A stretch of DNA of 64,000 nucleotides from an uncultured Acidimicrobiia bacterium (GCA_964195315.1 CAXMOZ010000113.1:2873-66872); one strand, 5' to 3'; counted from the first letter of the stretch, positions 13,367-42,103 are shown. Numbers and translations: made by a program. The notes: generated by a model from the sequence alone, not told the origin.

Positions 13367-14071
13367 ATGACCGACATAGATGATGACTACGAAGACGATC
13401 TAGATCTTTCAACTTTACCTGATGATGAGCTTGTCGAGCAGATGCACGATGACCTTTACAACGGCTTAAAAGAAGAAATCGCCGAAGGCACAGATATTCT
13501 TTTAGCGCGTGGTTGGAGTGCAAACAAAGTTTTAACCGAAGCATTAGTTGCGGGTATGACTATTGTTGGTATCGACTTCCGAGATGGAATTTTGTTTGTA
13601 CCTGAAGTTTTGATGTCGGCTAACGCAATGAAAGCAGGCATGGCCATTCTGAAACCATTGTTATCTGAATCTGATGAGCCAACTGCCGGTAAAATGGTCA
13701 TCGGGACTGTGAAAGGTGATATCCACGATATTGGCAAAAACCTGGTTTGTATGATGATGGAAGGTGCTGGATTTGAAGTCATCGATCTTGGTATTAATAC
13801 GCCGGTAGAAAAATACCTCGCAGCCCTGGAAGAGCATAAACCTGAAATTTTGGGTATGTCTGCGCTGTTGACGACGACCATGCCTTACATGAAAGTTGTC
13901 ATTGATACTATGAAAGAAAAAGGTATCCGTGACGACTACATCATTCTGGTCGGTGGTGCGCCTTTGAATCAGGAGTTTGGTGATGCCGTCGGCGCTGACG
14001 CTTATTGTCGTGATGCTGCGGTAGCCTCTGAAACAGCCAAGCAATTGGTTGCTGAGTTTCGAGCGCGTTAG
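13367..14071 (+). CDS. Stand-alone corrinoid (B12-binding) protein with cap domain
   Basis: FVPEVL cap helix, GDIHDIGKN (DxHxxG), SALLTTT, VGGAP; acidic N-terminal extension. Confidence 0.93.
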   Translation: MTDIDDDYEDDLDLSTLPDDELVEQMHDDLYNGLKEEIAEGTDILLARGWSANKVLTEALVAGMTIVGIDFRDGILFVPEVLMSANAMKAGMAILKPLLSESDEPTAGKMVIGTVKGDIHDIGKNLVCMMMEGAGFEVIDLGINTPVEKYLAALEEHKPEILGMSALLTTTMPYMKVVIDTMKEKGIRDDYIILVGGAPLNQEFGDAVGADAYCRDAAVASETAKQLVAEFRAR

Positions 14072-14117
14072 CCAGTAGTATTGATTCAAAAATAACTGGT
14101 TTGAGTGTCAATCAAAA

Positions 14118-14741
14118 ATGGACAAATCCGCCTCAATCCTGGTAATAACCTGTGCCGCTGTTGCACGCGAAGTTAATGATATAAAAAAGTTAGGTCAGTG
14201 GTCGCAGATGGATCTGCAAAGTATTACCGCTGACCTGCATGTCACTCCCGAAAAAATCCCCCAGGCCGTTGCCGATAAGATCGACAAAGCACGTGATGCT
14301 TATGATCATATCTTTGTCGCCTATGGTGATTGTGGCACCAGCGGTGAGCTCGACAAGGTACTAGAAGAGCGCGGTGTTAGCCGGTTGCCAGGCGCTCATT
14401 GTTATGACTTTTTAGCTGGTGAAGAAACCTACGCTCAATTACAGGAAGAAGAGCCAGGCACATTCTATTTGACTGATTTCCTGGCTCAGCATTTTCAGCG
14501 TTTAGTCATCGGTACGCTGGGACTGGATAAACACCCTGAGTTGCTGCCGATGTATTTCGGTAACTACACTCGGTTGGTGTATTTGGCGCAAACTGACTCG
14601 AATCAACTCACTGAATTAGCGCGACTGGCAGCCGAACAGCTTGGTTTGCGGTTCGAGCGGTTATTTACTGGCACTGGAGAAATGGTGCCAGCACTCGATG
14701 CTGCGATGCAAAAGGTAATGCGCACAGGGTCAGAAGGGTAG
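14118..14741 (+). CDS. DUF1638 protein (associated with corrinoid reactivation)
   Basis: CAAVARE, LH..P, YGDCGT, GAHCY, EPGTFYLTDF, YF.NY.RLVYLAQ. Confidence 0.85.
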   Translation: MDKSASILVITCAAVAREVNDIKKLGQWSQMDLQSITADLHVTPEKIPQAVADKIDKARDAYDHIFVAYGDCGTSGELDKVLEERGVSRLPGAHCYDFLAGEETYAQLQEEEPGTFYLTDFLAQHFQRLVIGTLGLDKHPELLPMYFGNYTRLVYLAQTDSNQLTELARLAAEQLGLRFERLFTGTGEMVPALDAAMQKVMRTGSEG

Positions 14742-15061
14742 TGCCTGGCATGGCTAAGCTCAAAATAGTTTTCTGGAGAGACATACCCGGCCAGGTGGTG
14801 GTTCGTGAAAATCGTCGTAGCACTCGGTTGCGCTTGTCACCCAAGTTTATGCGAGCAATAGAGCGAGCCGCCTATCGCTTAAAAAAGAGACATAAAGATG
14901 TCTGGTTCGATCCCTGGCATGACGTTGAACAACCTTTTATAGGTGACATCAATGAACAAGGGCGGTTATTAGTAGAGCATATCGAGCAGCAATACTCGGA
15001 ATCTGTTCTGGATCAATTAAGTCGAGCGAGCGGAAAAGAAATCCGCGCTCTAAATGCATAG
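14741..15061 (+). CDS. Small 'virulence factor' domain protein (PF13769-like)
   Basis: IVFWRDIPGQV and F..AI.RAA motifs; translationally coupled within the operon. Confidence 0.7.
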   Translation: MPGMAKLKIVFWRDIPGQVVVRENRRSTRLRLSPKFMRAIERAAYRLKKRHKDVWFDPWHDVEQPFIGDINEQGRLLVEHIEQQYSESVLDQLSRASGKEIRALNA

Positions 15062-15076
15062 TTAGGAGATTAAGTC

Positions 15077-15562
15077 GTGTACTCAGTCCGCCAATGGTCG
15101 GTCACTCATTCCAGAAAGTTGGGGAAATTTTACGACCTGTTTGAGGCAGCTTTATTCAAGTTGCATCCTTTATTCAATGTGATTGGATACGAGCGGCTTG
15201 AAAAGCCTGTCCGTGTTGTCGAGCAAGCCATTAAAGGTTTATTGTTTGATTGCCAAATGTGTGGCCAATGTGCGCTCAGTTCGACCGGTATGTCCTGTTC
15301 AATGAATTGCCCCAAATCGATACGCAATGGCCCTTGTGGTGGCGTGCGTCTGGATGGTCACTGCGAAGTGAAGCCCGAAATGCGTTGTGTTTGGGTTGAA
15401 GCGTGGCGTGGTAGCGCGTTAATGGTGGATACAAATGCGATTCAGCAGGTACAGGTAGCCGTTGATTTTAATTTAAAGGGAAGTTCATCTTGGCTGCGTG
15501 TTGTACGCAAAAGGGCTGAAGCAAAGGCGCTGCTCGACGAAGTTGGCGAGGTGCAATCATGA
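15077..15562 (+). CDS. Methylene-THF reductase C-terminal-like Cys-rich protein (MetV-like)
   Basis: CQMCGQC, CSMNCPK, NGPCGG, CEV, CVW; overlaps the metF start. Confidence 0.85.
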   Translation: MYSVRQWSVTHSRKLGKFYDLFEAALFKLHPLFNVIGYERLEKPVRVVEQAIKGLLFDCQMCGQCALSSTGMSCSMNCPKSIRNGPCGGVRLDGHCEVKPEMRCVWVEAWRGSALMVDTNAIQQVQVAVDFNLKGSSSWLRVVRKRAEAKALLDEVGEVQS

Positions 15563-16566
15563 TTGCTTATGATCAAAATCACCCAGGGAACCCGCTGCCT
15601 GAAAAAGAAGGCCATGTATCGCGTGGACGTTTTGAACGCGTATTACGAGAAGGTCACTTTGCAGTTACCGCCGAACTGGCACCACCAGACTCAGCACTAG
15701 CGACCGATGTTTACGACCGGGCGCGCGTGTTTGATGGATTTGTCGATGGCATGAATGCAACAGACGGCTCGGGCGCGCACTGCCATATGTCGAGTGTCGC
15801 CATGTGCGCGATACTCACTAATGTGGGCTATTCACCCATCATGCAAATTTCCTGTCGCGATAAAAATAGAATCGCAATTCAGGGCGACGTACTGGGTGCG
15901 GCTGCCATGGGTGTTAGTAGCATGCTTTGCCTGAGTGGTGATGGCGTACAGGTTGGTGACCACCCTGAAGCAAAGCCAGTCTTCGATTTAGACAGCATGT
16001 CATTGCTCGAAATCATTCGAGGCATGCGTGATAAATCAACCTTTCTCAGCGGACGTAAAATAACCTCAGCGCCTCAGGTTTTTCTTGGTGCGGCGTCTAA
16101 CCCAACGGCCCCACCGATCCATAATCGGCCCGATCGCTTAGCTAAAAAGATAGCCGCAGGGGCCGACTTTGTTCAAACCCAATATATATATGATGTCGCT
16201 CAGTTTAAGAGCTTTATGGCCAAATCGAGAGATCTTGGGTTGATCGAGAAATGTTTTATTTTGCCGGGTGTAGGGCCACTGGCATCCGCCAGAACAGCCA
16301 ACTGGATACGGACCAACGTACCAGGCATCGATATTCCTGACGCGATTATTGACAGGCTCTCTGGTGCAGAAAACCAAAAGCTGGAAGGCCAAAAAATTTG
16401 TATCGAACTAATCCAGCAACTACGCGAGATCGAAGGTGTCAGTGGCGTCCATGTCATGGCTTATCGTCAGGAAGAGGCGGTTGCCGACATTATTCAGCAA
16501 TCAGGCGTACTAGGCGATCGTAAACCCTGGTATCCGGGGTGTGAAGTTCAGGAACAAATTGCCTAA
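15559..16566 (+). CDS. metF: Methylenetetrahydrofolate reductase
   Basis: TAELAPP, TDG, QISCRDKNR, LSGD, K..AGADFVQTQ, GVHVM. Confidence 0.88.
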   Translation: MIAYDQNHPGNPLPEKEGHVSRGRFERVLREGHFAVTAELAPPDSALATDVYDRARVFDGFVDGMNATDGSGAHCHMSSVAMCAILTNVGYSPIMQISCRDKNRIAIQGDVLGAAAMGVSSMLCLSGDGVQVGDHPEAKPVFDLDSMSLLEIIRGMRDKSTFLSGRKITSAPQVFLGAASNPTAPPIHNRPDRLAKKIAAGADFVQTQYIYDVAQFKSFMAKSRDLGLIEKCFILPGVGPLASARTANWIRTNVPGIDIPDAIIDRLSGAENQKLEGQKICIELIQQLREIEGVSGVHVMAYRQEEAVADIIQQSGVLGDRKPWYPGCEVQEQIA

Positions 16567-16621
16567 GTAGTGCATAACTATCTATTTATTACCTATTAAT
16601 TTACTTTTTGAGGATTAACCA

Positions 16622-17524
16622 ATGACCGAGACGGTCCTTAGCTCAGCTACCAAAGAATTAGTCATCGGATTTGACCGCCCATTCGTTATTATCGGCGAGC
16701 GAATCAACCCAACTGGCCGCAAAATTATGGCCGAAGAAATGAAAAATGGCGATTACAGCCGAGTCGAATCTGACGCTCTGGCGCAGGTTGCTGCTGGCGC
16801 ACACATGCTCGACGTCAATGCTGGCATTCCGTTGGCAGACGAGCCACGTATTTTGGCAGAATCGATCCAGCTAGTTCAAAGCTTAACCGACGTACCCTTA
16901 AGCATTGATTCGTCGATTATTGATGCACTTGAGGCCGGACTGGCCGTTTATAAAGGTAAGGCATTAGTCAATTCGGTAACAGGTGAAGACGAGAGTCTTG
17001 AGCGTGTATTGCCGCTGATTAAGAAATATGGCGCAGCGGTTGTTGCCATTTCCAACGATGAGACGGGTATTTCAGAAGACATCAACGAACGTTATAAAAT
17101 TGCCAAGAAAATTGTAGAGCGTGCTGCAGATTATGGTATACCAGCTTGTGATGTAGTGGTTGATCCGTTGGTAATGCCAATTGGTGCGATCAACTCAGCT
17201 GGAAGAGAAGTGTTGAAATTGATTCATCGTTTGCGTACCGAACTGAAGGTTAATACAACCTGTGGCGCATCAAACGTGAGCTTTGGTCTACCTAATCGAA
17301 ATGGTTTTAACGGCGCATTTATCAGTATGGCGATTCAGGCTGGTATGACATCAGCGATTACTAATCCGTTGCATGCAGAGGTCATTAGTGCCAGCTTAGG
17401 TGCTGACGTGATGATGGGTAAAGATCCAGATTGCGCACGCTGGATTAAGCAATTCCGTGAGCCACCAGCTGAAGGTGCTATTGTTCGTGGCTCTGGTCGT
17501 AGAGGCCGTAGAAGTCGTTCATAA
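16622..17524 (+). CDS. Pterin-binding methyltetrahydrofolate:corrinoid methyltransferase
   Basis: IIGERINPTGRK, LDVNAG, SIDSS, NSV, DPLV, GASNVSFGLP; Arg-rich C-terminus. Confidence 0.9.
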   Translation: MTETVLSSATKELVIGFDRPFVIIGERINPTGRKIMAEEMKNGDYSRVESDALAQVAAGAHMLDVNAGIPLADEPRILAESIQLVQSLTDVPLSIDSSIIDALEAGLAVYKGKALVNSVTGEDESLERVLPLIKKYGAAVVAISNDETGISEDINERYKIAKKIVERAADYGIPACDVVVDPLVMPIGAINSAGREVLKLIHRLRTELKVNTTCGASNVSFGLPNRNGFNGAFISMAIQAGMTSAITNPLHAEVISASLGADVMMGKDPDCARWIKQFREPPAEGAIVRGSGRRGRRSRS

Positions 17525-17532
17525 AAACTAAT

Positions 17533-17672
17533 GGCTCCTTTTAAAATGCACTTTCCCCGCGATTGCCGTGTCAGCGCCGTGCTCGAATCCTCATGTACTA
17601 CTCGTACACTCCGGTTCTGTGCGTGGTGTTTCCTAGCACTCGCGAAAAAGATTACTATTTTTAGAGATACCC
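17533..17672. mobile_element. Palindromic MITE-like element (RPE-like), copy 1
   Basis: About 140 bp; shares AAAATGCACTTT, GTGCTCGAATCCT, ACACTCCGGTTCT and ACTATTTTTAGA with 57554-57698. Confidence 0.75.
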
Positions 17673-17693
17673 ATAAGCTTAAGGTGCTAGTGC

Positions 17694-19721
17694 ATGAGTG
17701 AAAAAGAAGTAAGCGTATTATTCATGCCTTCGGGCTTGCGCGGCCAGGTACAGACAGGCACTACTGTCTTACAGGCCGCGCAACGCCTCGGCGTTGATCT
17801 CGATTCGATCTGTGGCGGGCAGGGCAAATGTCGTCGCTGCCAGGTTTTACCGCAGGAAGGTGAATTTTCTAAGCATGGCATTACCTCGCGTGCTGAGCAC
17901 CTATCCGGGTTGACCGAAACCGAACATTATCTTCAAAGCAAAAACCGTCTAAAAGATGGCAAACGACTGGGTTGTAGTGCGCGTATTCTCGGTGATCTAG
18001 TCGTCGATGTTCCTGAAGAAAGCCAGCAGCACAAGCAACACATTACTAAGGCCGTCACTGCCTACGACATTCAGGTTCAACCTGCGCTACGCTTATATAC
18101 CGTAACGTTGCCCGAACCAGATATGCATGCGCCAATCTCCGATAAGCGACGTTTGCAAAATGCATTGGCAGCTGATTTTGAATTGCCCATTATGGATTGC
18201 GAGCTCTCACAGCTCAGGTTACTTCAGAAATCCCTCGATAAAGCCGACAGGCAAGTGACTGCTGCTGTTTATCAGCATCAGCAAATTATCGGCATTTGGC
18301 CCGGCGAAAAGAAAGTGCTCTATGGCCTCGCAATTGATCTTGGTTCTACTACTATCGCTGCCCAGCTATGTGATATGAACACGGGCGAAGTGGTCGCTAC
18401 GGCTGACACCATGAATCCACAGATTCGGTTTGGTGAAGACTTGATGAGTCGCGTGTCCTACGTGATGATGAACGAAGGCGGCGACGTTGCGATGACCAAT
18501 GTTGTGCGCGAAACGTTTAATCTACTAGCCAAACGTGCCGCAAAATCTGCTGGTATTGCTCTCGATGACATACTCGACATAACTGTTGTTGCTAACCCCA
18601 TCATGCACCACTTGTTTCTCGGTATTGATCCCACTCCGTTGGGAACAGCACCATTTACGTTAACGACTGACCAAACCACGATTGTTCGTGCTGCAGATAT
18701 CGATATTTACTGTCATCCGGAGACACGCGTGTGTGTTCTACCGTGTATTGCTGGACATATTGGAGCGGATACAGCGGGTGTTATCCTCGCCGAGCGTCCT
18801 GACCTGTCTGATGAATACGTATTGCTTGTCGATGTTGGTACCAATGCAGAAATCGTGCTGGGTAATAAACATCGAATGTTGGCAGCCTCCAGCCCAACAG
18901 GTCCCGCATTCGAGGGTGCTCAAATTACCGCCGGGCAACGAGCCGCTCCAGGCGCTATTGAGCGAGTGCGAATTGACCCCGAAACACTAGAACCACGGAT
19001 TCGTGTAATTGGATGTGACGTCTGGTCAGATGATCCTGAATTCACCGAAAAAAGCGCCAAAGTAGGTGTCAGCGGCGTGTGTGGATCAGGCATTATCGAA
19101 GTAGTCGCTGAAATGTTTCTCGCCGGCATCATCGATCAAGATGGCGTAATCGGTCTCGTCGAAGGCAAGGACAATAGCCGGGTAGTGCTTGATGGAAGAA
19201 CCTATTCCTACATATTGCATGATGGCGATAAATCACTTCGCATCACCCAAACTGATATTCGTGCGATTCAACTGGCAAAGGCCGCATTGCACGCAGGCAT
19301 TCGTTTGTTAATCGATTACATGGGCATTAGCAAAGTAGATAAAATTGGCTTCGCCGGTGCATTTGGCAGCCATATTGATGTTAAATACGCGATGGTTCTT
19401 GGCCTTATTCCTGATTGTAAATTGGATCATGTAGGGTCGGTGGGTAACGCCGCGGGTACCGGCGCGCGTATCGCTTTATTGAACTTTCCATCACGTCTTG
19501 AAATTGCCGAAATATTGCCAAAGGTGGAGAAAATCGAAACTGCTCTCGAACCTAAGTTTCAGGAATACTTTATTGAGGCGATGGCTTTGCCGCATAAAAC
19601 CGACCCCTACGAAGAACTGTCTACAATAGTCACTATTCCACCGCCCAAAGCGAAAGCAGAAGGTGATGGGCAGAATGACAGGAAACGTGGCGCTCGAGGT
19701 CGGCGTCGGGCGAGGGTTTAA
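17694..19721 (+). CDS. ASKHA-type ATP-dependent corrinoid reductive activase (RamA/RACo family) with N-terminal 2Fe-2S domain
   Basis: CGGQGKCRRC...C ferredoxin domain, DLGSTT, NPQIRFGEDLMSR, DVGTNAE, GPAFEG, AGAFG, GNAAG. Confidence 0.92.
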   Translation: MSEKEVSVLFMPSGLRGQVQTGTTVLQAAQRLGVDLDSICGGQGKCRRCQVLPQEGEFSKHGITSRAEHLSGLTETEHYLQSKNRLKDGKRLGCSARILGDLVVDVPEESQQHKQHITKAVTAYDIQVQPALRLYTVTLPEPDMHAPISDKRRLQNALAADFELPIMDCELSQLRLLQKSLDKADRQVTAAVYQHQQIIGIWPGEKKVLYGLAIDLGSTTIAAQLCDMNTGEVVATADTMNPQIRFGEDLMSRVSYVMMNEGGDVAMTNVVRETFNLLAKRAAKSAGIALDDILDITVVANPIMHHLFLGIDPTPLGTAPFTLTTDQTTIVRAADIDIYCHPETRVCVLPCIAGHIGADTAGVILAERPDLSDEYVLLVDVGTNAEIVLGNKHRMLAASSPTGPAFEGAQITAGQRAAPGAIERVRIDPETLEPRIRVIGCDVWSDDPEFTEKSAKVGVSGVCGSGIIEVVAEMFLAGIIDQDGVIGLVEGKDNSRVVLDGRTYSYILHDGDKSLRITQTDIRAIQLAKAALHAGIRLLIDYMGISKVDKIGFAGAFGSHIDVKYAMVLGLIPDCKLDHVGSVGNAAGTGARIALLNFPSRLEIAEILPKVEKIETALEPKFQEYFIEAMALPHKTDPYEELSTIVTIPPPKAKAEGDGQNDRKRGARGRRRARV

Positions 19722-19787
19722 TCTGATTAGGCCAAAGTGGAAGGGCGAGGGTTCTATGGCCCTTGTTTGCTGCTGAAAACGGCTGGC

Positions 19788-21611
19788 TTAAGCTGTACTA
19801 GTGAGCTCCTTATCTGCAAGGGGCTGTCCCGAAATATTGGTTACTTTGATCGAATCACGACCAGACATCTTAACCTGATACATCGCTTTATCCGCTGCGG
19901 CTAAAAGCTGATCGAGTAGTTTCTCCGGGTTTTCTTCCGTCGGATTAGTTGCTTTCCAACACACCAATCCAAAGCTAGCGGTAATACGAATTGTTTTATT
20001 ATCACTGGTTACCGCTGTTTCACTGATGGCCTGTCTTAATCTCTTCGTTAGTATATGCGCCTGGCTAGAGTCGGTGGCGTGTAATAAAACGACAAACTCC
20101 TCACCACCATATCGACAAATCAAGTCACCTTCACGACAGCTATTTCTGATTGAGTCGGCAATCGCTTTCAGCACTAAATCACCCGCACTATGACCATAAT
20201 TGTCATTGACCTTCTTAAAATGATCAATGTCGAATAACAGTAATGAAATTGGGCGCAGAAAGCGGATGGCGTTGGAAATTTCGGCTATCGCCTGATCTGA
20301 AAATGAACGCCTATTCAGCAATAAGGTGAGAAAATCTTCGTGTGCCATGCGCTCGAGCTTCTCCTGACTGTCCTGCAGTTCAGCAGTGCGTTCATCAACC
20401 TTTGATTCAAGACGTTCAGTGAGCATTTCCAGTGATATCTGCTGTTTCCAGTCTTGCACTAGGTAGATAGCGAGTGACGTTAGTGTAAATAACACTAAAC
20501 CAAATTGACCCGTACGTCCGATCCAATTGATAAAGCCATGGGCGCTCATCATATCCAGAACTAAAGAGCAAAATAGCGTGAGAATGCCAAAGGCCATTAA
20601 CAGCCCTAAAATCCTTTGGTGTTTCACTTGTTTGAAAAAGCTAAACATCAAAGACAGTACCAGCAAAATAAAAAGAATATCAAACCAGGGGTAAGCATTA
20701 ATAAAACTAAATTCGCTAAAAGTAGAGAGCAGAGCAACGATGGTGGAAAACCCGAGAGTAATAAAAAGTACGCATTGGCTTGTGAATGACCGGCCACTTT
20801 TAAGCCAAGCCGGAATAATAATGGCAAGAAAGGCTGGAATAAGAAAATAACTAAAGGCAGCGACATAACGCCAAAACAGAGGGTCATACCAAACAACTTG
20901 GCTTAACGCATTTTCTGCAAACATCATCAACGCCAAATTAAAAGAAAGCAGGCCAGTAGCGATAGCTGCAACACGATCTTTTTTAATCGTGCCCATGATC
21001 GTGCTGATAATTCCGACCAGTAATACCGTCACGATAAAAAACAAACCGGTGAGTCCTTGGCTATAGACAATATTGATAAGGTCAAAATGTTCGCCAACAA
21101 TTACTTCACCAGAAAAGCCTATTTGTGGATAGTTAGAAAAAACACGGAAATATAGGCTTTGTTGAGCATAATCATCTGGTAGCCGGATTATATGCCAGGG
21201 CCAGCCTTCGAACTGGCTGTTCCCCTTTGCATCTATGTTTCCGAATTGATAGATTTGCTGGCTTTTATGGAATACCTGCAAAGTCAAATCGACACTGTTA
21301 ATGAACAAATAAGGGTCGCGCCAATCACCCGCTGGCAGTGTTACTTTAAGCCAGACGATTTTTTCAGTACCCCTGCCAGGTATTTGCTCTGGTGAATTGG
21401 TGCGCCACCAATCGCTTTTGTCGAAGTCCCATTGACCTGTTCCCATATCTTTAGACAGATCTCCCCAGTGGTAGAACCAATCACCTGACGTTATAAGGGT
21501 GGTAGTACTCTGATTACCCAAGTCAGCCCTAGCTTGTTCTACAATAAAAAAAACAGAGGTGATGGTTATGAATAATAGAAGGACGATTCTTATTAATGGG
21601 TTGAAACTCAA
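19788..21611 (-). CDS. Membrane diguanylate cyclase (periplasmic 7TM-DISM-like sensor)
   Basis: Periplasmic domain plus about 7 TM helices; DIDHFKKVNDNYGH; REGD I-site; RYGGEEF. Confidence 0.88.
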   Translation of the reverse strand: MSFNPLIRIVLLLFITITSVFFIVEQARADLGNQSTTTLITSGDWFYHWGDLSKDMGTGQWDFDKSDWWRTNSPEQIPGRGTEKIVWLKVTLPAGDWRDPYLFINSVDLTLQVFHKSQQIYQFGNIDAKGNSQFEGWPWHIIRLPDDYAQQSLYFRVFSNYPQIGFSGEVIVGEHFDLINIVYSQGLTGLFFIVTVLLVGIISTIMGTIKKDRVAAIATGLLSFNLALMMFAENALSQVVWYDPLFWRYVAAFSYFLIPAFLAIIIPAWLKSGRSFTSQCVLFITLGFSTIVALLSTFSEFSFINAYPWFDILFILLVLSLMFSFFKQVKHQRILGLLMAFGILTLFCSLVLDMMSAHGFINWIGRTGQFGLVLFTLTSLAIYLVQDWKQQISLEMLTERLESKVDERTAELQDSQEKLERMAHEDFLTLLLNRRSFSDQAIAEISNAIRFLRPISLLLFDIDHFKKVNDNYGHSAGDLVLKAIADSIRNSCREGDLICRYGGEEFVVLLHATDSSQAHILTKRLRQAISETAVTSDNKTIRITASFGLVCWKATNPTEENPEKLLDQLLAAADKAMYQVKMSGRDSIKVTNISGQPLADKELTSTA

Positions 21612-21792
21612 GAAAGATATTCTCTTACGACCAATCGAAAATTGAGTATAGCGGATGATGATGAATCTGCAGGCGAATCATTGGCCCGATCGATAGGTTC
21701 GGTCGACCCGATGACCTTATACACTCCTGATTGACTGTTTACTGCCCTCTGATACGACGGTAGCTAATCAGACGGAGTCAGTGAGAGCGCTA

Positions 21793-22800: not shown

Positions 22801-22831
22801 ACGGTTGTTTGAGTGTTCCTGAATATTAATG

Positions 22832-24247: not shown

Positions 24248-24504
24248 CTCATCTCTCGCTGAAGCTATCAGTCAGAACTGGCCAACTATTCTGAGTGAGG
24301 CTTAAAGAATACTGACCCAGCATAACTAAATTTAGAATCATAGCAAAATTGAAACGCCAAAAAATTACCGAGTCTATCCGATTAGGGTGTCACTTTAGAC
24401 ATTGCTCGACTATCGGCTTTAAGCGCGCCTCTATTATCCTCATTCAGGATTGATTTTTATTGGATAGTGTTACAATAGCGTGGCTTATCAAATATTCGTA
24501 GCCA

Positions 24505-31620: not shown

Positions 31621-31703
31621 AATGCTTAAAAGTAGATATTTAGTTAAATACAGTTAATGTAGACGCTATCAAATTAATGTTACATCAATCATAGGAGAGT
31701 GTT

Positions 31704-31940: not shown

Positions 31941-32094
31941 AGGTGTGAGTCTAGTCGGCTAACTATAAATAAGTTTTCTAATCGACGTTTTGGGTTTCGC
32001 TATTGCTTGAACATGAATTACCCATAAAATGAAATGGGGCCTCGATTAAGTGTTCAATACCAGGTTTATCAGTGAGTATTCTGACTTTCTACAG

Positions 32095-32499: not shown

Positions 32500-32541
32500 G
32501 GTGTCTCCTAATACAATAGTGTTTACATTTTTAGCCGCGTC

Positions 32542-34149: not shown

Positions 34150-34152
34150 AGC

Positions 34153-35355
34153 TCATGAACTATGACTCATTAGTTGACGGCATAGTGCTTCAAATGCGGC
34201 AATATGAATGGGGCCATAGAGGTCATTTAATGGATCGGTTTGAGCTGATGTCTTGACGATGGTTATGTTGGCGACTGGATCGAGATATAACCATTGTCCG
34301 TGTAGCCCTATGGCTGCAAGCGCCGCGTTTTGATTGCCTATTTGATACCAGCAATTTCGATAGCCGCCCTCAGGGAATCTTTCGCTTGAGTTGCCGTTTT
34401 GCCATGGTTTTTTATCACCGCCACTGAAGCAGTCTTGGATCCACTGCTGGGGAATTACTTGACGGTTACCTACTCGCCCTTGATTCAACATCATATCGCC
34501 GAAGCGCAGTAAGTCACGAGGCAATGTGCAGATGCCACCAGCACTTCGTGCGGCACCTTTTTGATCTACGGTGATGTAAGCGTCCATTTCTGTTTGCAGT
34601 GGTTGCCAGATTAAATTAGACAATAGACTCGCAATGGTTTGTCCACTAATGCGCTCTAATACCCAACCGAGTAAATCGGTGTTAGGCGATTGATATTGAT
34701 ATCGAAAACCATGAGGGCTAGATCCGCTATTCAGCGACAACAGAAAATTGTGTAACCCAGAATTTGATTGATTGTCGATAGGTGGATTCCAGCCAGTCGA
34801 TGCCCAATATTGTGCTACCTTGCTCGATGGATTTTCAGTGAAGTCTTCAAAGTCAAGACTGGTTGTCATATCCAGTAATTGTTGGATAGTGCAATCGGCG
34901 AAACCACTCTGCATTGCCTCGGGTACATAGCGCGTCACTTTGGCTGTTACCTCAAGTTGGCCGCTGTCTACGAAAATACCCGTTAGTGTGCCTATGATCG
35001 ATTTGCTCACCGAAAATAAAATGTGTGGGTTATGAGCAGCACTGTCGTGGGCATACCATTCGTGCACTAGTTTGCCATTGTGTGATATGAGTAAGGCGCT
35101 GCCATTACTTGCTTCGCATAACTGCTGAATTGTCCAGGGTGCCCGATTTGATTCTTGTGCTGATTCTGGCCCCTCAAACTGGATAGAATCGATCAATGGG
35201 TTGTTATTCAATGTCAGCGCTGTGGGCGAACTTCCTGTTGGTATGTTCTCTGTGGGTAGTAGTTCACGAATGTGCTGAAAACTCCATTTACTGAGTGGTG
35301 ACTGTCTCCAGTTGGCCAGACTTAAGTGACCAGGACGAGTCTTTGACGCAGCCAC
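34153..35355 (-). CDS. Serine hydrolase of the beta-lactamase fold (NylB / 6-aminohexanoate-dimer hydrolase-like)
   Basis: FSVSKS (SxxK), YQSPNT, GLHGQ; NylB-like N-terminus 'NWRQSP..KWSFQHIRELLPT'. Confidence 0.82.
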   Translation of the reverse strand: MAASKTRPGHLSLANWRQSPLSKWSFQHIRELLPTENIPTGSSPTALTLNNNPLIDSIQFEGPESAQESNRAPWTIQQLCEASNGSALLISHNGKLVHEWYAHDSAAHNPHILFSVSKSIIGTLTGIFVDSGQLEVTAKVTRYVPEAMQSGFADCTIQQLLDMTTSLDFEDFTENPSSKVAQYWASTGWNPPIDNQSNSGLHNFLLSLNSGSSPHGFRYQYQSPNTDLLGWVLERISGQTIASLLSNLIWQPLQTEMDAYITVDQKGAARSAGGICTLPRDLLRFGDMMLNQGRVGNRQVIPQQWIQDCFSGGDKKPWQNGNSSERFPEGGYRNCWYQIGNQNAALAAIGLHGQWLYLDPVANITIVKTSAQTDPLNDLYGPIHIAAFEALCRQLMSHSS

Positions 35356-36584
35356 TATTCAATCTCGCTAATGATTCTTTGGTTAGATGAACTTAATGGG
35401 GTCTGACACATTTCTAGATGCAACCGACCGCCGCTAGTGTAGGGGTTTGCGTCCAATACTGATTCGTTGAGTTCGATGCCTAATCCAGGTTCGGTTGGCG
35501 GTAGCATATACCCTTGTTCCCAGGTAAGTGGTTTTTTCAATATGGCGTCATGGAATTCTGTTTGAATAGTTTCCAGTATCAAAAAAGCCGGGCTCGAAAA
35601 GGCAACATGAGTCGCTGCCGCATGCGCAATTGGGCCGCAATAAATATGAGGTGCAATCTGAGCGTTATAGAGTTCGGCGATCATGGCTATTTTTTTGGTT
35701 TCCCAAATGCCACCACTGCGACCGATGTCGGGTTGTAGAATTGAAACGCCAGCTTGCAGTGCCTGATGGAATTCCATTTTAGTGGTTAGTCTTTCACCCG
35801 TGGCAACAGGGATAGAAGTTGCACTGGCTACCTTGCCAATGGCTTCCATTTGATCTGGTGGGCAGGGTTCTTCAAACCACAAAGGATCATACTGCTCGAT
35901 GCGCCGCGCCAGTCGAATCGCGGATGATGTCGTCATTTGTCCGTGCGTGCCGAATAGTATGTCGGCTCGATCACCGACGGCTTCGCGAATACATTTTATG
36001 TTGTACTCACAGCGCGATAATTCATGCATTGATAATTCGCGGCTGCCCTGGAAACTGTAAGGCCCGGCTGGGTCTTGTTTGACAGCGGTGAATCCCATTT
36101 CGACATATTCGAGTGCACGTTTGGCTGCTGCGTCACCATCGTGGTAAACATCGCCTGCCTGCTCATCTTCGGCAGGGGATTCATTATTTGGGTACAGGTA
36201 GGTATAAGTGCGTAGACGAGGATGAAACTGACCGCCTAGTAATTGATAAACAGGTTGCTCATGCGCCTTGCCCAGAATATCCCAGATCGCAATTTCGATA
36301 CCACTGAAAACACCCATCATGCTGATGTCTGGGCGTTGCGTAAAACCAGCTGAGTAAACTCGTCGGAATAGCGTTTCGATGTGATGCGGATCTTCACCGA
36401 CAATAAACCGCTCGAAAGTATCTTCTACCATGGCACAGGCAATATCACCAGAAACAGGAATGCCATAACACTCGCCAATACCCTCGATGCCATTGTCAGT
36501 CGTAATTTTGACAATGACCCAAAACGATCCGCCGATACCTGTTGGTGGAACGGTTACCCAGGTGCTAATTTCTTTTAGTTTCAT
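35355..36584 (-). CDS. Enolase superfamily enzyme (mandelate racemase subgroup)
   Basis: TDNGIEGIGE, WDILGK, KQD, GTHGQ, WFEEP, TGER, QPD, APH. Confidence 0.9.
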   Translation of the reverse strand: MKLKEISTWVTVPPTGIGGSFWVIVKITTDNGIEGIGECYGIPVSGDIACAMVEDTFERFIVGEDPHHIETLFRRVYSAGFTQRPDISMMGVFSGIEIAIWDILGKAHEQPVYQLLGGQFHPRLRTYTYLYPNNESPAEDEQAGDVYHDGDAAAKRALEYVEMGFTAVKQDPAGPYSFQGSRELSMHELSRCEYNIKCIREAVGDRADILFGTHGQMTTSSAIRLARRIEQYDPLWFEEPCPPDQMEAIGKVASATSIPVATGERLTTKMEFHQALQAGVSILQPDIGRSGGIWETKKIAMIAELYNAQIAPHIYCGPIAHAAATHVAFSSPAFLILETIQTEFHDAILKKPLTWEQGYMLPPTEPGLGIELNESVLDANPYTSGGRLHLEMCQTPLSSSNQRIISEIE

Positions 36585-36676
36585 ATCGATCGACCTATTT
36601 TCATTTGGGTGTCATTCTAAGTTAGAAAGGCAGCGATGCGCCATGCTTAGAGTTAACATTGATGTCATTGTATGTG

Positions 36677-37576
36677 CTAAATATCACGTGGCAATAATTC
36701 TGTTTTTATCAGCTCTAGTAACTTTGTCATTTGTCCGGTGGCAGCGCCCGAAGAAAAACGTGCGACGTGTTGTATCGGGGGTGGTTGAGGTAAGTTTTTG
36801 CGATCGACTATGAGTCCTCGATTGCCACTGTTGTATCGGCTCAGTGAACGTTGCTCGAGCGTAGCGTTATTGACTAGGCCTATACCCAGTCCATTTCTGA
36901 CAGCGCTGATCATACCGTCGACACTCGGGCATTCGAACACAACGCGAATAGTCTTGCCTTCTCGAGCGAGCGTGCGCTCTGCCCATGCTTTGTAAAAACA
37001 ATCTTTATGATAGGTGACAAACGGAATTGGCGTGTCAGGTTCAAGACTAAAATCCTCTGCTTGTAACCAGACTATCTCTTGCCGTCCCAACGCATGGTCG
37101 GTGTCTAGCTGTTCTGACTCAAATACTTCAATTAACGCCATGTCAACCATGCCAGTATCAAGCCAGCCGATTAACTGTGGTGTATGGCCTACTTTGGATG
37201 TGAGGTTTATGTTGGGAAAGTTATTTGTGAAATTTAATAATATCTGTGCAATGCCGGGTGCGGTGACATCTTCCGTAATGCCAAGTTTCAATTCACCCGT
37301 TAGGTTACTCCGATTAAAACTGGCCAATGCTTCATCATGTAGTTTCACCATGCGACGGGCGAAGTCGAGCAGTTTTTCACCGTCAAAACTCAAGTTCATT
37401 TTGCCATCGACTCGATTAAACAAACTGCGATTGAGTTTAGTTTCGAGGCGCTTCATTTTATGACTAACAGCTGATTGCGATAAGTTCAGTTTTTTGGCAG
37501 CGCGGGTAACGCCACCTGTTTCTGCTATCGCCGTTAAGGCTCGCATAGATTCAATATCGAGATGGGTAGAAGTCAT
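36677..37576 (-). CDS. LysR family transcriptional regulator
   Basis: HTH 'GVTRAAKKLNLSQSAVSHKMKRLE'; divergent from the flavoprotein operon. Confidence 0.95.
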   Translation of the reverse strand: MTSTHLDIESMRALTAIAETGGVTRAAKKLNLSQSAVSHKMKRLETKLNRSLFNRVDGKMNLSFDGEKLLDFARRMVKLHDEALASFNRSNLTGELKLGITEDVTAPGIAQILLNFTNNFPNINLTSKVGHTPQLIGWLDTGMVDMALIEVFESEQLDTDHALGRQEIVWLQAEDFSLEPDTPIPFVTYHKDCFYKAWAERTLAREGKTIRVVFECPSVDGMISAVRNGLGIGLVNNATLEQRSLSRYNSGNRGLIVDRKNLPQPPPIQHVARFSSGAATGQMTKLLELIKTELLPRDI

Positions 37577-37594
37577 GACAAATATCGATGGAAA

Positions 37595-37618
37595 GCATGA
37601 AAATATATCGTTTTATGC
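37595..37618. promoter_or_regulatory. Putative LysR operator
   Basis: Imperfect dyad GCATGAAAA-tatatcg-TTTTATGC in the 100-bp divergent spacer. Confidence 0.45.
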
Positions 37619-37675
37619 ATGTGGCTACAAGTCGTATATTAGCCTCATACCCCTTAACCTTAGCCTGCTACCAAG

Positions 37676-39670
37676 ATGACTCACTATCCTAAGCTGTTTG
37701 AACCGATTCAACTACGGCACAAAACACTCAACAACCGAATCGTGTTTGGTGCCCATACCGCGAATATGGCTGAGCAGGGTTTGCCTGCTGAACGCCATCG
37801 GGCTTATTATGAAGAGCGAGCGATTGGTGGGGCAGCCATGATCGTTGTCGAGCCGATGCCTGTTCATCAGACTGCGGTATTAACTCGCGGCAATTTTCGT
37901 CATAGCGATGATGCCGTTATCCCGCATTTTCGCAAAATTACGGATGCAGTTCATTCCCATGGCACGGTAATTTTGCAGCAGCTTTATCATATTGGTCAGC
38001 ATGGCGATGCCGATCTCTCCTTTGCACCGAACTGGTCACCCTCTGGTTTGCCGTCTTATCATGATTCGGATGGCAGCCATCAAATGTCGAATGCTGAAAT
38101 AATCGAGCTTATCGAGGCTTTCGTGACTGCCGCTAAGCGGTGCCAATTATCAGGATTTGATGGCGTCGATCTTTTCGCCGCTTATCACTCCCTGTTCGAG
38201 CAGTTCTGGTCGTCCTGGTCAAATACACGTGATGATGCTTGGGGTGGCTCGGTTCAAAATCGCTGTCAATTTTCTACCCATATTATCAATGCAATTCGTA
38301 AGGCCTGCGGAGAAGATTTTATCATTGGAATGTCGATTAGTTATTCCGAAAATACGCCGTTTGTTTTGCAGTTAGACGAACTGCAGGAAGTCATAGCATT
38401 GCAGTGTCAAACCGAAAATCTGGACTATGTCAGCTGTGGTGCTGGTAACTATGTTGACTATGACCGAGTGATGCCAACCTTTATGCATGCCGAAAAACTA
38501 GGTGCACCGCTGGCGACAATACTGAAGTCAGCTGTTGCCTCGGTAACAGGAAGCACGCTTGTCACCGCCGAGTGTCATATTCGTACGCCAGAAAATGCGA
38601 GTTCGGTCATCGGTAGTGGCGAGGCAGATTTGGTATCGATTGTGCGCGGTCAAATTGCCGATCCTCATTGGGTCAATAAAACACGTGAAGGTCGACCAGA
38701 AGATGTACGAGGTTGTATCTCCTGTAATCAAATGTGTTGGGGGCGTCGCTCTCGAGACTATTGGATATCTTGCCTGGTTAATCCGTCTGCTGGGCGAGAA
38801 TTCGAATGGGGTGGTGATCGTTTTGATAGTGCTGCAAACGTTAAAAAAATTCTGGTCGTCGGTGGCGGCCCGGCGGGCATGGAAGCTGCCAGAGTGGCAG
38901 CAGAGCGTGGTCATCAAGTGACCCTGGCCGAAGCGTTAGGCGATTTAGGCGGACAGTTTCGACTCGCTGGTTTAGCACCCAGACGAGGTCAAATTACCGA
39001 ACTGATGCAATGGTATCTGCGTCAGTTTGAGAAGCTCAAAGTTGATGTTTTGTATTTTTCGCCGATGGATGATATCGATATCATCGAATTCGCTGCCGAT
39101 GAAGTAATCATCGCGACAGGCTCACTCCCGGATGGGCTGGGTCGCCAGCGTTGGCTGCCAAACGAAGAGCAAATGCCTGGATTAGATCAAGGCAACTTGT
39201 GGTCATGTGAAGAAGTTTTGCGTGAACAGGCAACGTTGGGTGAGCAGGTTATCGTGTTGGATGAGGGTGGTAACTGGCGAGGGGCTGGCACAGCCTGGTA
39301 TCTAGCCGACAAGGGCCATCAAGTAACGGTTGTAACACCTGATGCCTATGTCGGAAAAGAACTTTCGCGAACCACTGCTGACTATCCCATTCGCAGCAGC
39401 CTGAGTAAAAAAGGTGCGACGTTTATGGTTGATTCGGTCATCGAGCGTTGGCATGGCAACGGTGCTGATGTGCGATGCATGCTTGATGGTAGCGTTACGT
39501 TTGTGGCTGCTTCTGCCTTAGTCATGGCCACTACCAACATGGCTGAAAATAGCATCGAGCAGGCGTTGGAAGGTAGCGATATCAAGTTTCATATTATTGG
39601 CGATTGTGCCAGTCCCCGTTCGGCACCCTATGCATTTCATGAAGGGCGTAAGATCGCTCTGAGTCTTTAA
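37676..39670 (+). CDS. NADH:flavin oxidoreductase (OYE barrel + 4Fe-4S + FAD domain; StcD/DgcA/TMADH-like)
   Basis: YYEERAIGG, N.R.D.WGGS, CISCNQMC...C, GGGPAG, IGDC. Confidence 0.9.
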   Translation: MTHYPKLFEPIQLRHKTLNNRIVFGAHTANMAEQGLPAERHRAYYEERAIGGAAMIVVEPMPVHQTAVLTRGNFRHSDDAVIPHFRKITDAVHSHGTVILQQLYHIGQHGDADLSFAPNWSPSGLPSYHDSDGSHQMSNAEIIELIEAFVTAAKRCQLSGFDGVDLFAAYHSLFEQFWSSWSNTRDDAWGGSVQNRCQFSTHIINAIRKACGEDFIIGMSISYSENTPFVLQLDELQEVIALQCQTENLDYVSCGAGNYVDYDRVMPTFMHAEKLGAPLATILKSAVASVTGSTLVTAECHIRTPENASSVIGSGEADLVSIVRGQIADPHWVNKTREGRPEDVRGCISCNQMCWGRRSRDYWISCLVNPSAGREFEWGGDRFDSAANVKKILVVGGGPAGMEAARVAAERGHQVTLAEALGDLGGQFRLAGLAPRRGQITELMQWYLRQFEKLKVDVLYFSPMDDIDIIEFAADEVIIATGSLPDGLGRQRWLPNEEQMPGLDQGNLWSCEEVLREQATLGEQVIVLDEGGNWRGAGTAWYLADKGHQVTVVTPDAYVGKELSRTTADYPIRSSLSKKGATFMVDSVIERWHGNGADVRCMLDGSVTFVAASALVMATTNMAENSIEQALEGSDIKFHIIGDCASPRSAPYAFHEGRKIALSL

Positions 39671-39682
39671 GGAAGTGAAATT

Positions 39683-40570
39683 ATGAGTGATTTAAAAGGT
39701 ATTAATCTCGCGATGCAAACGCCATTTAATGATGATGGCAGTATCGATTATTCGCGTTGGCAAGAGCTGATCGATAGTTACATCGATGCGGGCGTTCATG
39801 GATTAGTGCTCGGTGCGGGCACTGGTCAGCACCCCTATTTGACGCAGGCAGAATGCAATAAGCTATATGAGCTAGGTGCCGCCAGAGTCAATGGTCGTTG
39901 TAATCTCATTATGCAAACCTCGGCGCTGATTGTTGATGAAGTGATTGAAAGGTCCAAACATGCTCAGGGGCTAGGGGCTGATGCGTTAATGATATTACCG
40001 CCTTATCTAGAAGGCCCGGAAGATGACGATGGCTTGTTTGAGTTCTATCGAACCATCGATGCGGCATTAGACTCATCCAAAGATACGGACATCATCGGTT
40101 ACAACATCCCACAAACGACAGGCATCGCTATTTCGGTCGACTTGTTTAAGCGTTTAAATCAACTAACGCATTTCAATTACATCAAAGATAGCGCCGGAGA
40201 TCTGGCAACCCATCAAGCCTATTTGCAAACCGGTTATAAAGTTCTCAACGGCGCTGATCCGACTACGGTGTTCGCCATGATCGCCGGGGCAACTGGCACA
40301 ATTTGGGGTGGCGCTAATTATATGCCGAAACAATGTGTTGCTTTGTATGAACTGGTTTCATCGGGTGATATTGCGGGTGCTATGAGCCTCTGGAATAAAA
40401 TGATTCCATCTCTACTGTATATATGGGAAGGCAATTATATTCCAAAGGTGAAAGTCGCCTGTCGCTTGCGTGGCTTCGATGGTGGGTCAGTCCGCGCACC
40501 ACTGAGACCGATCGGTCCCCATGAAGAAGCCGAGTTAGGCAGATGCCTGGCACTACTGGATGAGCTTTAA
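39683..40570 (+). CDS. Dihydrodipicolinate synthase/NAL family protein (probably not DapA itself)
   Basis: TPF..DGSID, GAGTGQ in place of GTTGE, YNIP, KDS Schiff-base Lys. Confidence 0.88.
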   Translation: MSDLKGINLAMQTPFNDDGSIDYSRWQELIDSYIDAGVHGLVLGAGTGQHPYLTQAECNKLYELGAARVNGRCNLIMQTSALIVDEVIERSKHAQGLGADALMILPPYLEGPEDDDGLFEFYRTIDAALDSSKDTDIIGYNIPQTTGIAISVDLFKRLNQLTHFNYIKDSAGDLATHQAYLQTGYKVLNGADPTTVFAMIAGATGTIWGGANYMPKQCVALYELVSSGDIAGAMSLWNKMIPSLLYIWEGNYIPKVKVACRLRGFDGGSVRAPLRPIGPHEEAELGRCLALLDEL

Positions 40571-40579
40571 TGGAAAGGA

Positions 40580-42103
40580 ATGATGGCAACTAAACGTAGA
40601 AGACTCGGTGGCAGTAAAGGGCGACATGCTGCAATTGCAAATAAAGCAATTGTCCATCATCCTTCTTTGCAACGTAAAATTCCTATTATGGAAGTAACGA
40701 ATCAGGAAGGTGTTGAGCTGATTCATGATTTTGCAATGCGTACAGCAGAGCAAATTGGTTGTGAATTTCAGGATGAGGAATCGATAGAGTATTGGCGTCA
40801 AACAAGCGCCGAAATAAAGGGGCAGAGAGTCTACATCGGTCGCGAAGAGTTGTTAGCGCTAGTAGCAAAAATCCCTTCTTCGTTTACCCATCATGCGCGT
40901 AATCCTGAGAGATCAGTCAAAGTTGGCGATGGTCATGCCGTCGTTTCACCTTCTTACGGCGCACCTTTTGTGCGTGATATGGATGGCGTGCGACGTTACG
41001 CGACGATGGAAGATTTAAACAATCTACAAAGACTCAATCATATGGCTTCATCAGTTCATATAGCAGGTGGTCCGATTGTGGAGCCTGTTGATATACCCGT
41101 GCCGTATCGTCATATGCACATGGCTTATAGTGGCCTTAAATATTCGGACAAACCCATCATCGGAAATGTGACATCACGCAGTCGTGCAGAAGATACGATG
41201 GAAATGATGAAGATCGTATTTGGTGCAGAGTTTGCAACTAATAATACGGTCACGACATCACTTATCAATGCCAATTCCCCACTGGTGTGGGATGAAACCA
41301 TGCTCGATGCCCTCAAGGTTTACGCGATGAATAATCAGGCCGTTATGTGCTCACCCTTTTCGATGGCTGCGGCTAGCACGCCAGCGAGTAATGTCGGGAC
41401 TATAGGCGTCGTATTAGCCGAGGCGCTAATGGCGATGGCGATGGCACAAATTATACGTCCTGGTTCTCCGATGGTGTTCGGTGTGCCAGCTATGACGGTT
41501 GCATTGAACAGTGGAGCCCCAGTGCATGGCTCACCCGATTCAGCCATGGTGCAATTTTTGGCGAATGCCATGGCGAGGTATTATAAGGTGCCTCATCGCG
41601 CCATTTTAAATGTGGCGACATCAAAGTCGGGTGACATGCAGGCGGCTTATGATTCGATGTGGGGATTGTTCCCAAGTATGTTATCCGATGCGAACTGGTT
41701 AACGATGGGTGGTGGCATGCTGGAAGGTGCGTTGACGGTTGGTTATGGCAAAACCATGATCGACTTCGAGCAGCTGGATGCTTTTTATCATTTTCTTCAA
41801 GGGCCAAAATTTGATGACATAGAAGAGGTTTTTCAATTGGCTAAAAAAATAGGGCCAGGTGGACACTTTTTAGGCGAAACTCACACTCTGGAAAGCAATT
41901 TATTTATCTTTGAATCGCAACATAATAATTCATTCGAGCAATGGGAGGTTGACGGCAAGCTCGATAGTGAGCAGGTAGGGATTAATAAAGCAAAATCCTG
42001 GCTGGAAAAGTATCAACTACCGGCTATGGACCCGGCATTAGATAATGCTTTGTTGGCCTATATCGCAAAACGAGAAAGTGAAATCCCACTGACTTTAAGC
42101 TAA
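40580..42103 (+). CDS. Trimethylamine methyltransferase (MttB) superfamily, non-pyrrolysine
   Basis: HARNP, YGAPFV.D, EPVD, NANSPL, DMQAAY, GPGGHFLG; no in-frame TAG. Confidence 0.92.
   Translation: MMATKRRRLGGSKGRHAAIANKAIVHHPSLQRKIPIMEVTNQEGVELIHDFAMRTAEQIGCEFQDEESIEYWRQTSAEIKGQRVYIGREELLALVAKIPSSFTHHARNPERSVKVGDGHAVVSPSYGAPFVRDMDGVRRYATMEDLNNLQRLNHMASSVHIAGGPIVEPVDIPVPYRHMHMAYSGLKYSDKPIIGNVTSRSRAEDTMEMMKIVFGAEFATNNTVTTSLINANSPLVWDETMLDALKVYAMNNQAVMCSPFSMAAASTPASNVGTIGVVLAEALMAMAMAQIIRPGSPMVFGVPAMTVALNSGAPVHGSPDSAMVQFLANAMARYYKVPHRAILNVATSKSGDMQAAYDSMWGLFPSMLSDANWLTMGGGMLEGALTVGYGKTMIDFEQLDAFYHFLQGPKFDDIEEVFQLAKKIGPGGHFLGETHTLESNLFIFESQHNNSFEQWEVDGKLDSEQVGINKAKSWLEKYQLPAMDPALDNALLAYIAKRESEIPLTLS

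Follow-up and report, generated by a model that had tools for sequence, protein, structure and literature searches.

Acidic extension of a free corrinoid carrier and Arg-rich tails of its partner enzymes: a candidate electrostatic docking system in an aerobic methyl-transfer operon

The stretch of DNA described here, indicated in the following as the window, is 64,000 nucleotides long and comes from the genome of an uncultured Acidimicrobiia bacterium (GCA_964195315.1, CAXMOZ010000113.1:2873-66872). Between positions 13367 and 19721 it carries seven co-directional genes on the + strand, from a corrinoid protein through to a RACo/RamA-type activase: on the basis of the protein families encoded, they are assigned to the aerobic corrinoid methyl-transfer system of MtgC, MtgD, RamA, DUF1638 and MetF2, which has been described in Ruegeria pomeroyi and Phaeobacter inhibens. 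The present report deals with a new, apparently undescribed feature of this known system: the corrinoid carrier begins with a strongly acidic extension, while the enzymes predicted to be its clients bear Arg-rich tails. The tails are extreme for the proteome of this genome, keep their composition across phyla and occur together; they are absent from paralogues of the same genomes which are not clients of the carrier, and from more distant corrinoid systems. The mechanism considered most likely, which the sequence comparisons support with moderate confidence, is an electrostatic tethering or steering between the acidic tip of the carrier and the Arg tails of the clients; we infer that the two kinds of tails come into contact, and that this contact is of importance for turnover.

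The carrier, of the MtgC type (13367..14071, + strand), consists of a B12 cap (PF02607, B12-binding_2, 58.9 bits) and a B12-binding Rossmann domain (PF02310, 93.5 bits), while its match to the MtgC-like NCBIfam model falls below the cut-off. It begins with MTDIDDDYEDDLDLSTLPDDELVE: the extension, residues 1-24 (13367-13438), contains 12 D/E and no K/R. The MtgD-type, pterin-binding methyl-tetrahydrofolate:corrinoid methyltransferase (16622..17524, + strand; PF00809; NCBIfam NF005719, 352.8 bits, above cut-off) ends with the Arg-rich tail RGSGRRGRRSRS (17486-17521, + strand), and the RACo/RamA-type reductive activase, composed of a 2Fe-2S ferredoxin domain and an ASKHA ATPase (17694..19721, + strand; PF14574, 289 bits, along with PF17651, PF17650 and PF00111), ends with RKRGARGRRRARV (19680-19718, + strand). 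A methyltransferase of the MttB superfamily (non-pyrrolysine), the predicted methyl donor, is encoded 20.9 kb downstream of the activase (40580..42103, + strand; PF06253, 518.9 bits), in an open reading frame (ORF) of 507 amino acids without internal stop or in-frame amber codon. It begins with MMATKRRRLGGSKGRH, the basic extension covering residues 1-36 (40580-40687, + strand). A sequence-only reading of the window had based a docking code on these four termini, all of which are present as quoted. Both start codons on which the N-terminal extensions depend are credible: GGAG is found 8 nucleotides upstream of the ATG at 13367, the purine-rich GGAAAGGA lies directly before the ATG at 40580, and the extension is conserved in frame. 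An origin of the Arg tails in base composition or in repeats is ruled out, since they are written in mixed CGN and AGR codons, in a region of 45–48% GC.

The rank of these termini was evaluated within the whole genome (4.88 Mb, 223 contigs), by using a crude proteome of 3929 non-overlapping ORFs of at least 100 amino acids, selected from 4847 ORFs. By number of Arg within the last 13 residues, the activase (7) ranks first and the pterin methyltransferase (6) second of the 3929; eight proteins reach 5, some of them from a ribosomal-protein-rich contig (C89), and no other exceeds this value. By net acidity of the first 24 residues, the carrier (12) again ranks first, the runner-up scoring 9. Of the seven MttB paralogues of the genome, five belong to the 53 proteins (of 3929) in which a stretch of 12 residues close to the N-terminus contains 6 or more K/R. 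By these measures, the pattern of charged tails is confirmed not to be due to chance.

Conservation of the acidic extension was followed at increasing distance. Among the matches listed, the extension is present in frame in 120 of 120 close homologues (91–99% identical), with 14–18 D/E and 0–1 K/R before the LYNG motif, in 32 variants that differ by whole-codon indels in the Asp run. Because the length of the Asp run varies by in-frame indels while its composition is held, this variation points to selection on composition, not on sequence. Among representatives of clusters at 50% identity, homologues with about 55% identity or more have an N-terminal extension, typically in the form DDEIILSELSDDELVQQMHDDLYDGL, while those with 50% identity or less begin about 10 residues before the cap helix.

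A profile scan of genome contigs with a 23-sequence carrier alignment provided 80 loci. The window carrier is 65–82% identical to 38 of them and 41–52% identical to the other 42, by which it is placed, on identity and not on a tree, within the proteobacterial MtgC clade, apart from MetH and from the MtgC of anaerobes. The 38 clade loci come from Alpha-, Beta- and Gammaproteobacteria, Actinomycetes/Acidimicrobiia and Chloroflexota, and include Ruegeria, Pseudophaeobacter, Mesorhizobium and Rhizobium; the 42 outgroup loci come from Actinomycetota, Chloroflexota, Clostridia/Lachnospiraceae, Desulfobacterales, Thermotogaceae and others. For each protein, counts refer to the homologues present and complete in the fetched DNA. 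Net acidity of the carrier, taken over the 25 residues preceding the cap, is 5–12 in the clade and -3 to 6 in the outgroup, with values of at least 5 in 38/38 and 1/42 loci, respectively. At least 5 Arg within the last 15 residues are found for 20 of 21 pterin methyltransferases in the clade versus none of 18 in the outgroup, and at least 4 for 16 of 17 activases versus none of 20. For MttB, the median N-terminal K/R density is 5 in the clade (n=16) and 2 in the outgroup (n=10). The acidic extension and all the basic tails are thus associated, at the level of the clade, within one branch of the aerobic MtgBCD(E)/RamA system, as far as can be judged from these sequences. The sequence-only reading had made its case depend on tails that are conserved and that occur together: their composition is kept across all five of the groups sampled in the clade, and acidic and basic tails are found together in this clade, both in the 80 loci and in the 25 further genomes described below, and are missing in more distant corrinoid systems. 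On the comparative points which it raised, the outcome favours that reading; as a whole, it is partly supported.

An additional set of genomes, with controls taken from the same genomes, was selected only by homology to an outgroup corrinoid protein (P0198). In the search of 401 Pseudomonadota genomes, a single carrier gene was found in each of 38, this genome included; taking one genome per genus left 25 genera, from 10 families. The carrier extension is present in 25 of 25, with net acidity of 4–11, the single value of 4 being due to codons upstream of the Met. All 25 activases have at least 5 Arg, as do 23 of the 25 MtgD-type pterin enzymes; in the exceptions there are either 4 Arg, or an Arg cluster displaced 13–28 residues from the end. 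In contrast, none of the 25 FolP proteins of the same genomes reaches 5 Arg, the maximum being 3. The same holds for the homocysteine methyltransferase family PF02574, where at least 5 Arg are found in 23 of 24 MtgE-like proteins (the lone exception has an Arg cluster 15–25 residues from the end), versus 0 of 14 MmuM-like proteins and 0 of 2 other, weak matches (L188 and L189, 32 and 44 bits). The pterin-family set consists of 50 regions, with reading frame picked by homology and seven MetH-type matches left out; the PF02574 set consists of 40 fetched matches of 61, classified by means of tail-less query cores. The P0198 search revealed no intermediate lineage which could act as a nearer outgroup in these Pseudomonadota: the clade itself was found, at 44–51% identity, along with one 38% match contained in a 1267-residue open frame (G053).

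The MtgE-type enzymes were not among the partners first listed. A scan for further Arg-tailed enzymes, suggested in the sequence-only reading, was carried out on the ORFs of the fetched loci and revealed a recurrent Arg-tailed protein of about 340 residues, located beside the carrier gene in Rhodobacterales and other loci, which Pfam identifies as a homocysteine S-methyltransferase (PF02574) in six of six cases tested. In the clade loci, 13 of 13 such enzymes end in 5–7 Arg, following an extra C-terminal extension of about 40 residues; in the outgroup loci, 8 of 8 stop shortly after the GGCCGT helix and have 1–4 Arg. The genome under study has its own MtgE-like gene on another contig (C20:11704-12549; PF02574, 204 bits), whose product ends with KARPASGKRRRK; its final 13 residues amount to a net +7, a value surpassed (at +8) by no more than three of the 3929 proteins. 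Used as query, it matches 12 full-length homocysteine methyltransferases of the clade loci, several of which are located beside mtgC in Rhodobacterales, with 287–386 bits. A second, MmuM-like PF02574 paralogue (contig C102) has no tail and ends KRLKEQGYSV. MtgE-type homocysteine methyltransferases are therefore regarded, by sequence, as a fourth tailed class of predicted clients, beyond the three first listed; their tail had not been foreseen, yet it follows from the docking idea.

The MttB-type partners are dispersed around the genome. Only one free corrinoid protein is found, the other PF02607 match being MetH; there is one RACo, and three PF00809 proteins correspond to FolP, MetH and the pterin methyltransferase of the window. 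Seven full-length MttB paralogues are located on six contigs, besides one fragment in the window and one match below the Pfam cut-off. All seven begin with K/R-rich segments, and the six outside the window have no internal stops. This agrees with the proposal that the tail marks the distant MttB of the window as a client. That one carrier may serve many dispersed methyltransferases, which had also been proposed, fits a genome with a single carrier and seven scattered MttB with basic N-termini; as an idea, it is already present in the literature (PMC12478193) and cannot be considered new. The six further paralogues (contigs C52, C13, C177, C17 and C44; loci L081-L086) are 18–40% identical to the window copy, and two of them lie on one contig, 5.5 kb apart and on opposite strands; the two most divergent (18% and 22% identity) still have a basic N-terminus. 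A protein of about 570 residues encoded elsewhere (C40:9559-11271, - strand) also has a K/R-rich start, DRKTKRNRGKTKGR, among the 13 most basic N-termini of the genome: with its Cys-rich motifs it looks, by eye, like a NuoE/NuoF-like dehydrogenase subunit, and is not treated as a client.

The consecutive arginines found in the N-terminus of the window MttB (KRRRLGG) superficially resemble a twin-arginine motif, and basic termini might in principle be export (Tat-like) or proteolysis signals. Such an explanation is very unlikely. A Tat signal was rejected for MttB, since the sequence after the arginines (MMATKRRRLGGSKGRHAAIANKAIVHHPSLQRK) lacks a hydrophobic h-region; in three client classes out of four the tail is C-terminal, a position not used by export signals, and all the partners are cytoplasmic enzymes, handling cofactors, which must meet a cytoplasmic carrier.

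The charge of the proteins, separated into tails and cores, suggests how the tails could act. The carrier has a net charge of -25, of which -12 in the tip. In the three clients measured, the cores are also negative (-10 for MtgD, -23 for the activase, -20 for the window MttB), while the tails are positive (+6, +8 and +9, respectively): the tails may thus be seen as local positive antennae, present on proteins which would otherwise repel the carrier. In the favoured mechanism, the single MtgC would shuttle methyl-cobalamin among seven MttB donors, MtgD, the MtgE-type enzyme and the ATP-dependent activase. It bears a flexible poly-Asp/Glu tip, fixed to the first helix of the B12 cap domain, which would be captured by the short and flexible Arg/Gly-rich tail of each client; this tail is N-terminal in MttB and C-terminal in the other three. 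Through capture, encounters would become more frequent and the carrier would stay close to its clients, and the docking of tails would replace the covalent linkers that join the same modules in MetH. Fused MetH has the same homocysteine-, pterin- and cap/B12-binding modules, and the same need to present its cofactor to several active sites; it relies on covalent linkers and on an S-adenosylmethionine-binding reactivation domain, where in the system described here the modules are distinct proteins bearing charged tails, and reactivation falls to an ATP-dependent activase of the RACo/RamA type. An acidic hub or tail, recognized electrostatically by many partner enzymes, is also found in the C-terminal tip of the single-stranded DNA-binding protein SSB and in acyl carrier protein. 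The partners of these proteins use folded basic pockets or patches; here, in contrast, a cobalamin carrier acts as the hub, and every partner brings a disordered, Arg-rich tail.

Short, disordered tails rich in Arg and Gly are also generic polyanion binders. The Arg tails might therefore bind a polyanion of another kind, for example nucleic acid (RNA or DNA), polyphosphate or the inner membrane with its anionic surface, and co-localize the enzymes on a common scaffold; the acidic tip of the carrier would then be a separate feature, serving for example to keep the carrier off the scaffold or to displace clients from it. This would agree with the presence of the same kind of tail in all client classes, whichever face meets the carrier. 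Moreover, the prediction of a complex between the full carrier and residues 1-45 of MttB, run without controls, gave a score of 0.09 (mark 0.32), which speaks neither for nor against binding, so that there is no verdict on contact between tail and carrier. On the other hand, a scaffold leaves unexplained why the most acidic N-terminus of the proteome should be found on the one protein common to all clients, and why acidic extension and basic tails appear in the same clade; a scaffold able to attract the clients would also repel the carrier, because of its net charge of -25. We consider it improbable, although it is one of the two main rivals of electrostatic docking.

The other main rival is suggested by the predicted structure of the carrier. 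AlphaFold2 models were built from a 27-sequence alignment for the carrier and from a 20-sequence alignment for MttB. In MttB, residues 1-30 are poorly defined, with a mean predicted local distance difference test (pLDDT) value of 38, 51 and 58 for the three successive blocks of 10 residues. In the carrier, residues 1-9 lie below 50; the mean rises to about 89 for residues 11-20, and residues 19-31 form a helix that leads into the cap bundle. With residues 11-20 well modelled and the extension passing without a break into the first helix of the cap, floppiness is predicted for the tip (residues 1-9) alone. In the 27 clade sequences L14, L17 and D19 are nearly invariant, and L22, Q25 and D29 invariant. 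Continuity with the cap and invariant residues would both be expected if the acidic extension were a regulatory handle on the B12 cap, through which a client tail uncovers cobalamin or gates the access to it, the affinity between tails being a by-product; displacement of the cap is indeed required in MetH-type chemistry. Yet the carriers of the outgroup have ordinary caps and function with no handle of this kind. The proposal is to be seen as a refinement of electrostatic docking, not as an alternative excluding it. Taken by itself it is improbable, to about the same degree as a common scaffold or very slightly less so.

A number of observations weigh against a docking function. The association is one of a single clade versus all others, and may derive from a single origin, inherited with the operon: no independent loss or gain of one tail type was seen among the loci and genomes compared. 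Co-variation of the tails, anticipated in the sequence-only reading, is found between clades and fails within the clade, where acidity of the carrier and strength of the Arg tails show no significant correlation (Spearman 0.34, p 0.13, n=21; 0.08, p 0.76, n=17). Some members have weak or displaced tails: one clade activase ends with KKTRSRGTTAGF (L009), one pterin methyltransferase has only 3 Arg (L012), and in two loci the Arg cluster is displaced 13–28 residues from the end (L108 and L159). In one locus from a Gammaproteobacteria metagenome-assembled genome (MAG; L001), a divergent MttB-superfamily ORF of 508 amino acids, scoring 84 bits to the window MttB, lies beside the operon and starts with MIPQFAQFLSQTEVL, with no basic extension: it would fall outside the clients of the carrier, unless its start has been called wrongly. 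The DUF1638 protein is tail-less, although it is genetically needed for the system, according to PMC5764234. As to sampling, the values of the clade loci derive in part from frameshifted contigs of long-read MAGs (L010, L025 and L031), and one read-through ORF (L023) was counted under both pterin methyltransferase and activase; 15 of the 25 genomes belong to one family, and relatives are not independent. Of the Firmicutes and archaeal controls that had been proposed, the former are provided by the Clostridia/Lachnospiraceae loci, which have no tails, while the 80 loci fetched include no archaeal system and no Desulfitobacterium hafniense locus. Apparent fusions of pterin methyltransferase and activase (L023 and L047) resemble the product of read-through in contigs from long-read MAGs.

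The single contrast between clades, the missing co-variation within the clade and the few weak or displaced tails would all agree with tails having no role in docking: these could be low-complexity appendages which arose once in the ancestor of the operon and were carried along with it, or which act on solubility or stability. Maintenance of the tails is the main argument for a function. They persist in five families of proteins, part of them with genes at a distance from the operon, across phyla and in genomes of varied composition, with this one (about 45% GC) at one end and Arg-rich loci of MAGs and isolates at the other; their sequence and length turn over at constant composition; paralogues of the same genomes that do not use the carrier lack them (FolP 0/25, MmuM-like 0/14). 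Neutral tails, moreover, are not expected to stay extreme for a whole proteome. The absence of any docking role is therefore held to be unlikely, somewhat more so than the two main rivals.

Electrostatic docking and the cap handle may also be combined. The Arg/Gly tail would then be a portable address tag, with the tip of the carrier as receptor: acquiring the tag would be enough to turn an enzyme into a client, and seven or more MttB could in this way have been plugged into one carrier. Through the attachment of the tip to the first helix of the cap, docking would drive the uncapping of cobalamin by mechanical coupling. At the concentrations found in cells, multivalent tails of opposite charge could assemble the carrier with its clients into a dynamic metabolon or a condensate. 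This wider proposal is tentative: we rate it well below simple docking, though above each of the rival explanations.

As to the system itself, a three-part methionine synthase, accompanied by a RamA-like protein and DUF1638, is described for Phaeobacter inhibens in Price et al. 2018 (PMC5764234), where DUF1638 is genetically linked to B12 reactivation. In Ruegeria pomeroyi, Mausz et al. 2025 (PMC12478193) showed that two processes depend on a single MtgC: the demethylation of glycine betaine, with MtgB (of the MttB family) and MtgD as partners, and methionine synthesis, with MtgD and MtgE. The system is presented there as a major route for both processes in abundant marine and soil bacteria. 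The window operon is built from the same protein families as the published MtgBCD(E)/RamA/DUF1638/MetF2 system and appears to follow the same logic, where one carrier serves MttB donors, a bidirectional pterin methyltransferase, a homocysteine methyltransferase and a RamA-like activase with DUF1638. All of its characteristic components are found: carrier, MttB, MtgD with MetF, activase with DUF1638, and a stand-alone MtgE. Unlike the published descriptions, this genome keeps a full MetH and has seven MttB paralogues. Anaerobic systems, such as MtgABC from D. hafniense, MttBC/RamA from methanogens and the Clostridial O- and N-demethylases, have the same types of components, i.e. a free corrinoid protein, a substrate methyltransferase of the MttB or another family, a second methyltransferase and a RamA/RACo activase; the 42 outgroup loci differ, their carriers starting about 10 residues before the cap helix with no acidic extension, and their partners having no Arg tails.

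The use of one carrier by several methyltransferases is thus already known, and only the tails appear to be new. Charged termini are mentioned neither in the main text of PMC12478193 nor in a related preprint (10.64898/2025.12.19.695462), and no prior description of the tails was found in the literature searched, PMC13080624 included, subscription journals being largely outside the search. In the literature found on the system, no account is given of how one small B12 carrier is shared among many enzymes. A docking tag, if real, would provide a direct and testable mechanism for such sharing; termini alone would predict dispersed clients, here seven MttB paralogues and one MtgE, and the tag would be a simple handle for engineering multi-enzyme cobalamin methyl-transfer cascades.

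The remaining genes of the operon encode proteins without Arg-rich tails. As had been stated for MetF and the MetV-like protein, and as is seen from their termini, neither ends in such a tail, and the same is true of the DUF1638 and PF13769 proteins. The DUF1638 protein (14118..14741, + strand; PF07796, 107 bits) has the C-terminus ...AMQKVMRTGSEG. It is followed by a small PF13769 ('Virulence_fact') protein (14741..15061, + strand; 47.5 bits), of 106 amino acids, with isoelectric point of about 10 and net charge of +6, which is a recurrent member of the operon (15 phmmer matches across the 80 fetched loci); located between the DUF1638 and MetV-like genes and basic as a whole, it could also interact with the acidic carrier. 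The MetV-like protein (15077..15562, + strand; PF12225, 87 bits) corresponds to DUF5981, similar to the C-terminal part of methylene-tetrahydrofolate reductase. The gene for the MetF2-type methylenetetrahydrofolate reductase (15559..16566, + strand; PF02219, 127.7 bits), whose product ends ...YPGCEVQEQIA, lies directly upstream of the pterin methyltransferase gene. In the carrier, the DxHxxG motif is conserved in the alignment of homologues, with G117, D118, I122 and G123 invariant and H120 and D121 nearly so; carrier and pterin methyltransferase are also matched, in part, by the metH models of NCBIfam. A search of the window against Rfam gave no match.

The operon is flanked by two apparent signalling genes on the - strand. 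An HD-GYP-like protein, recognized by eye from the motifs HDVGK...HHERVDGTGYP, is encoded upstream (11936-13129), and a membrane protein, whose C-terminus resembles, again by eye, a GGDEF diguanylate cyclase (GGEEF motif), downstream (19788-21611).

The MttB of the window lies in a cluster of its own, comprising a divergent LysR regulator (36677-37576, - strand), an FMN/FAD oxidoreductase of the Oxidored_FMN + Pyr_redox_2 type (37676-39670) and a DHDPS-family protein (39683-40570); an enolase-superfamily protein of the MR/MLE type (35355-36584) adjoins it. The arrangement resembles the published genes of proline-betaine/hydroxyproline-betaine catabolism (epimerase, N-methylproline demethylase and DHDPS-like deaminase), and by analogy this MttB may demethylate a proline-type betaine instead of glycine betaine. 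An ORF of 111 amino acids (45791-46126), 88% identical to the last 108 residues of MttB, is found 3.7 kb downstream of the intact gene and is either a C-terminal remnant or a partial duplicate; a DUF4344 putative metallopeptidase lipoprotein and a DUF4189 protein are encoded between the two.

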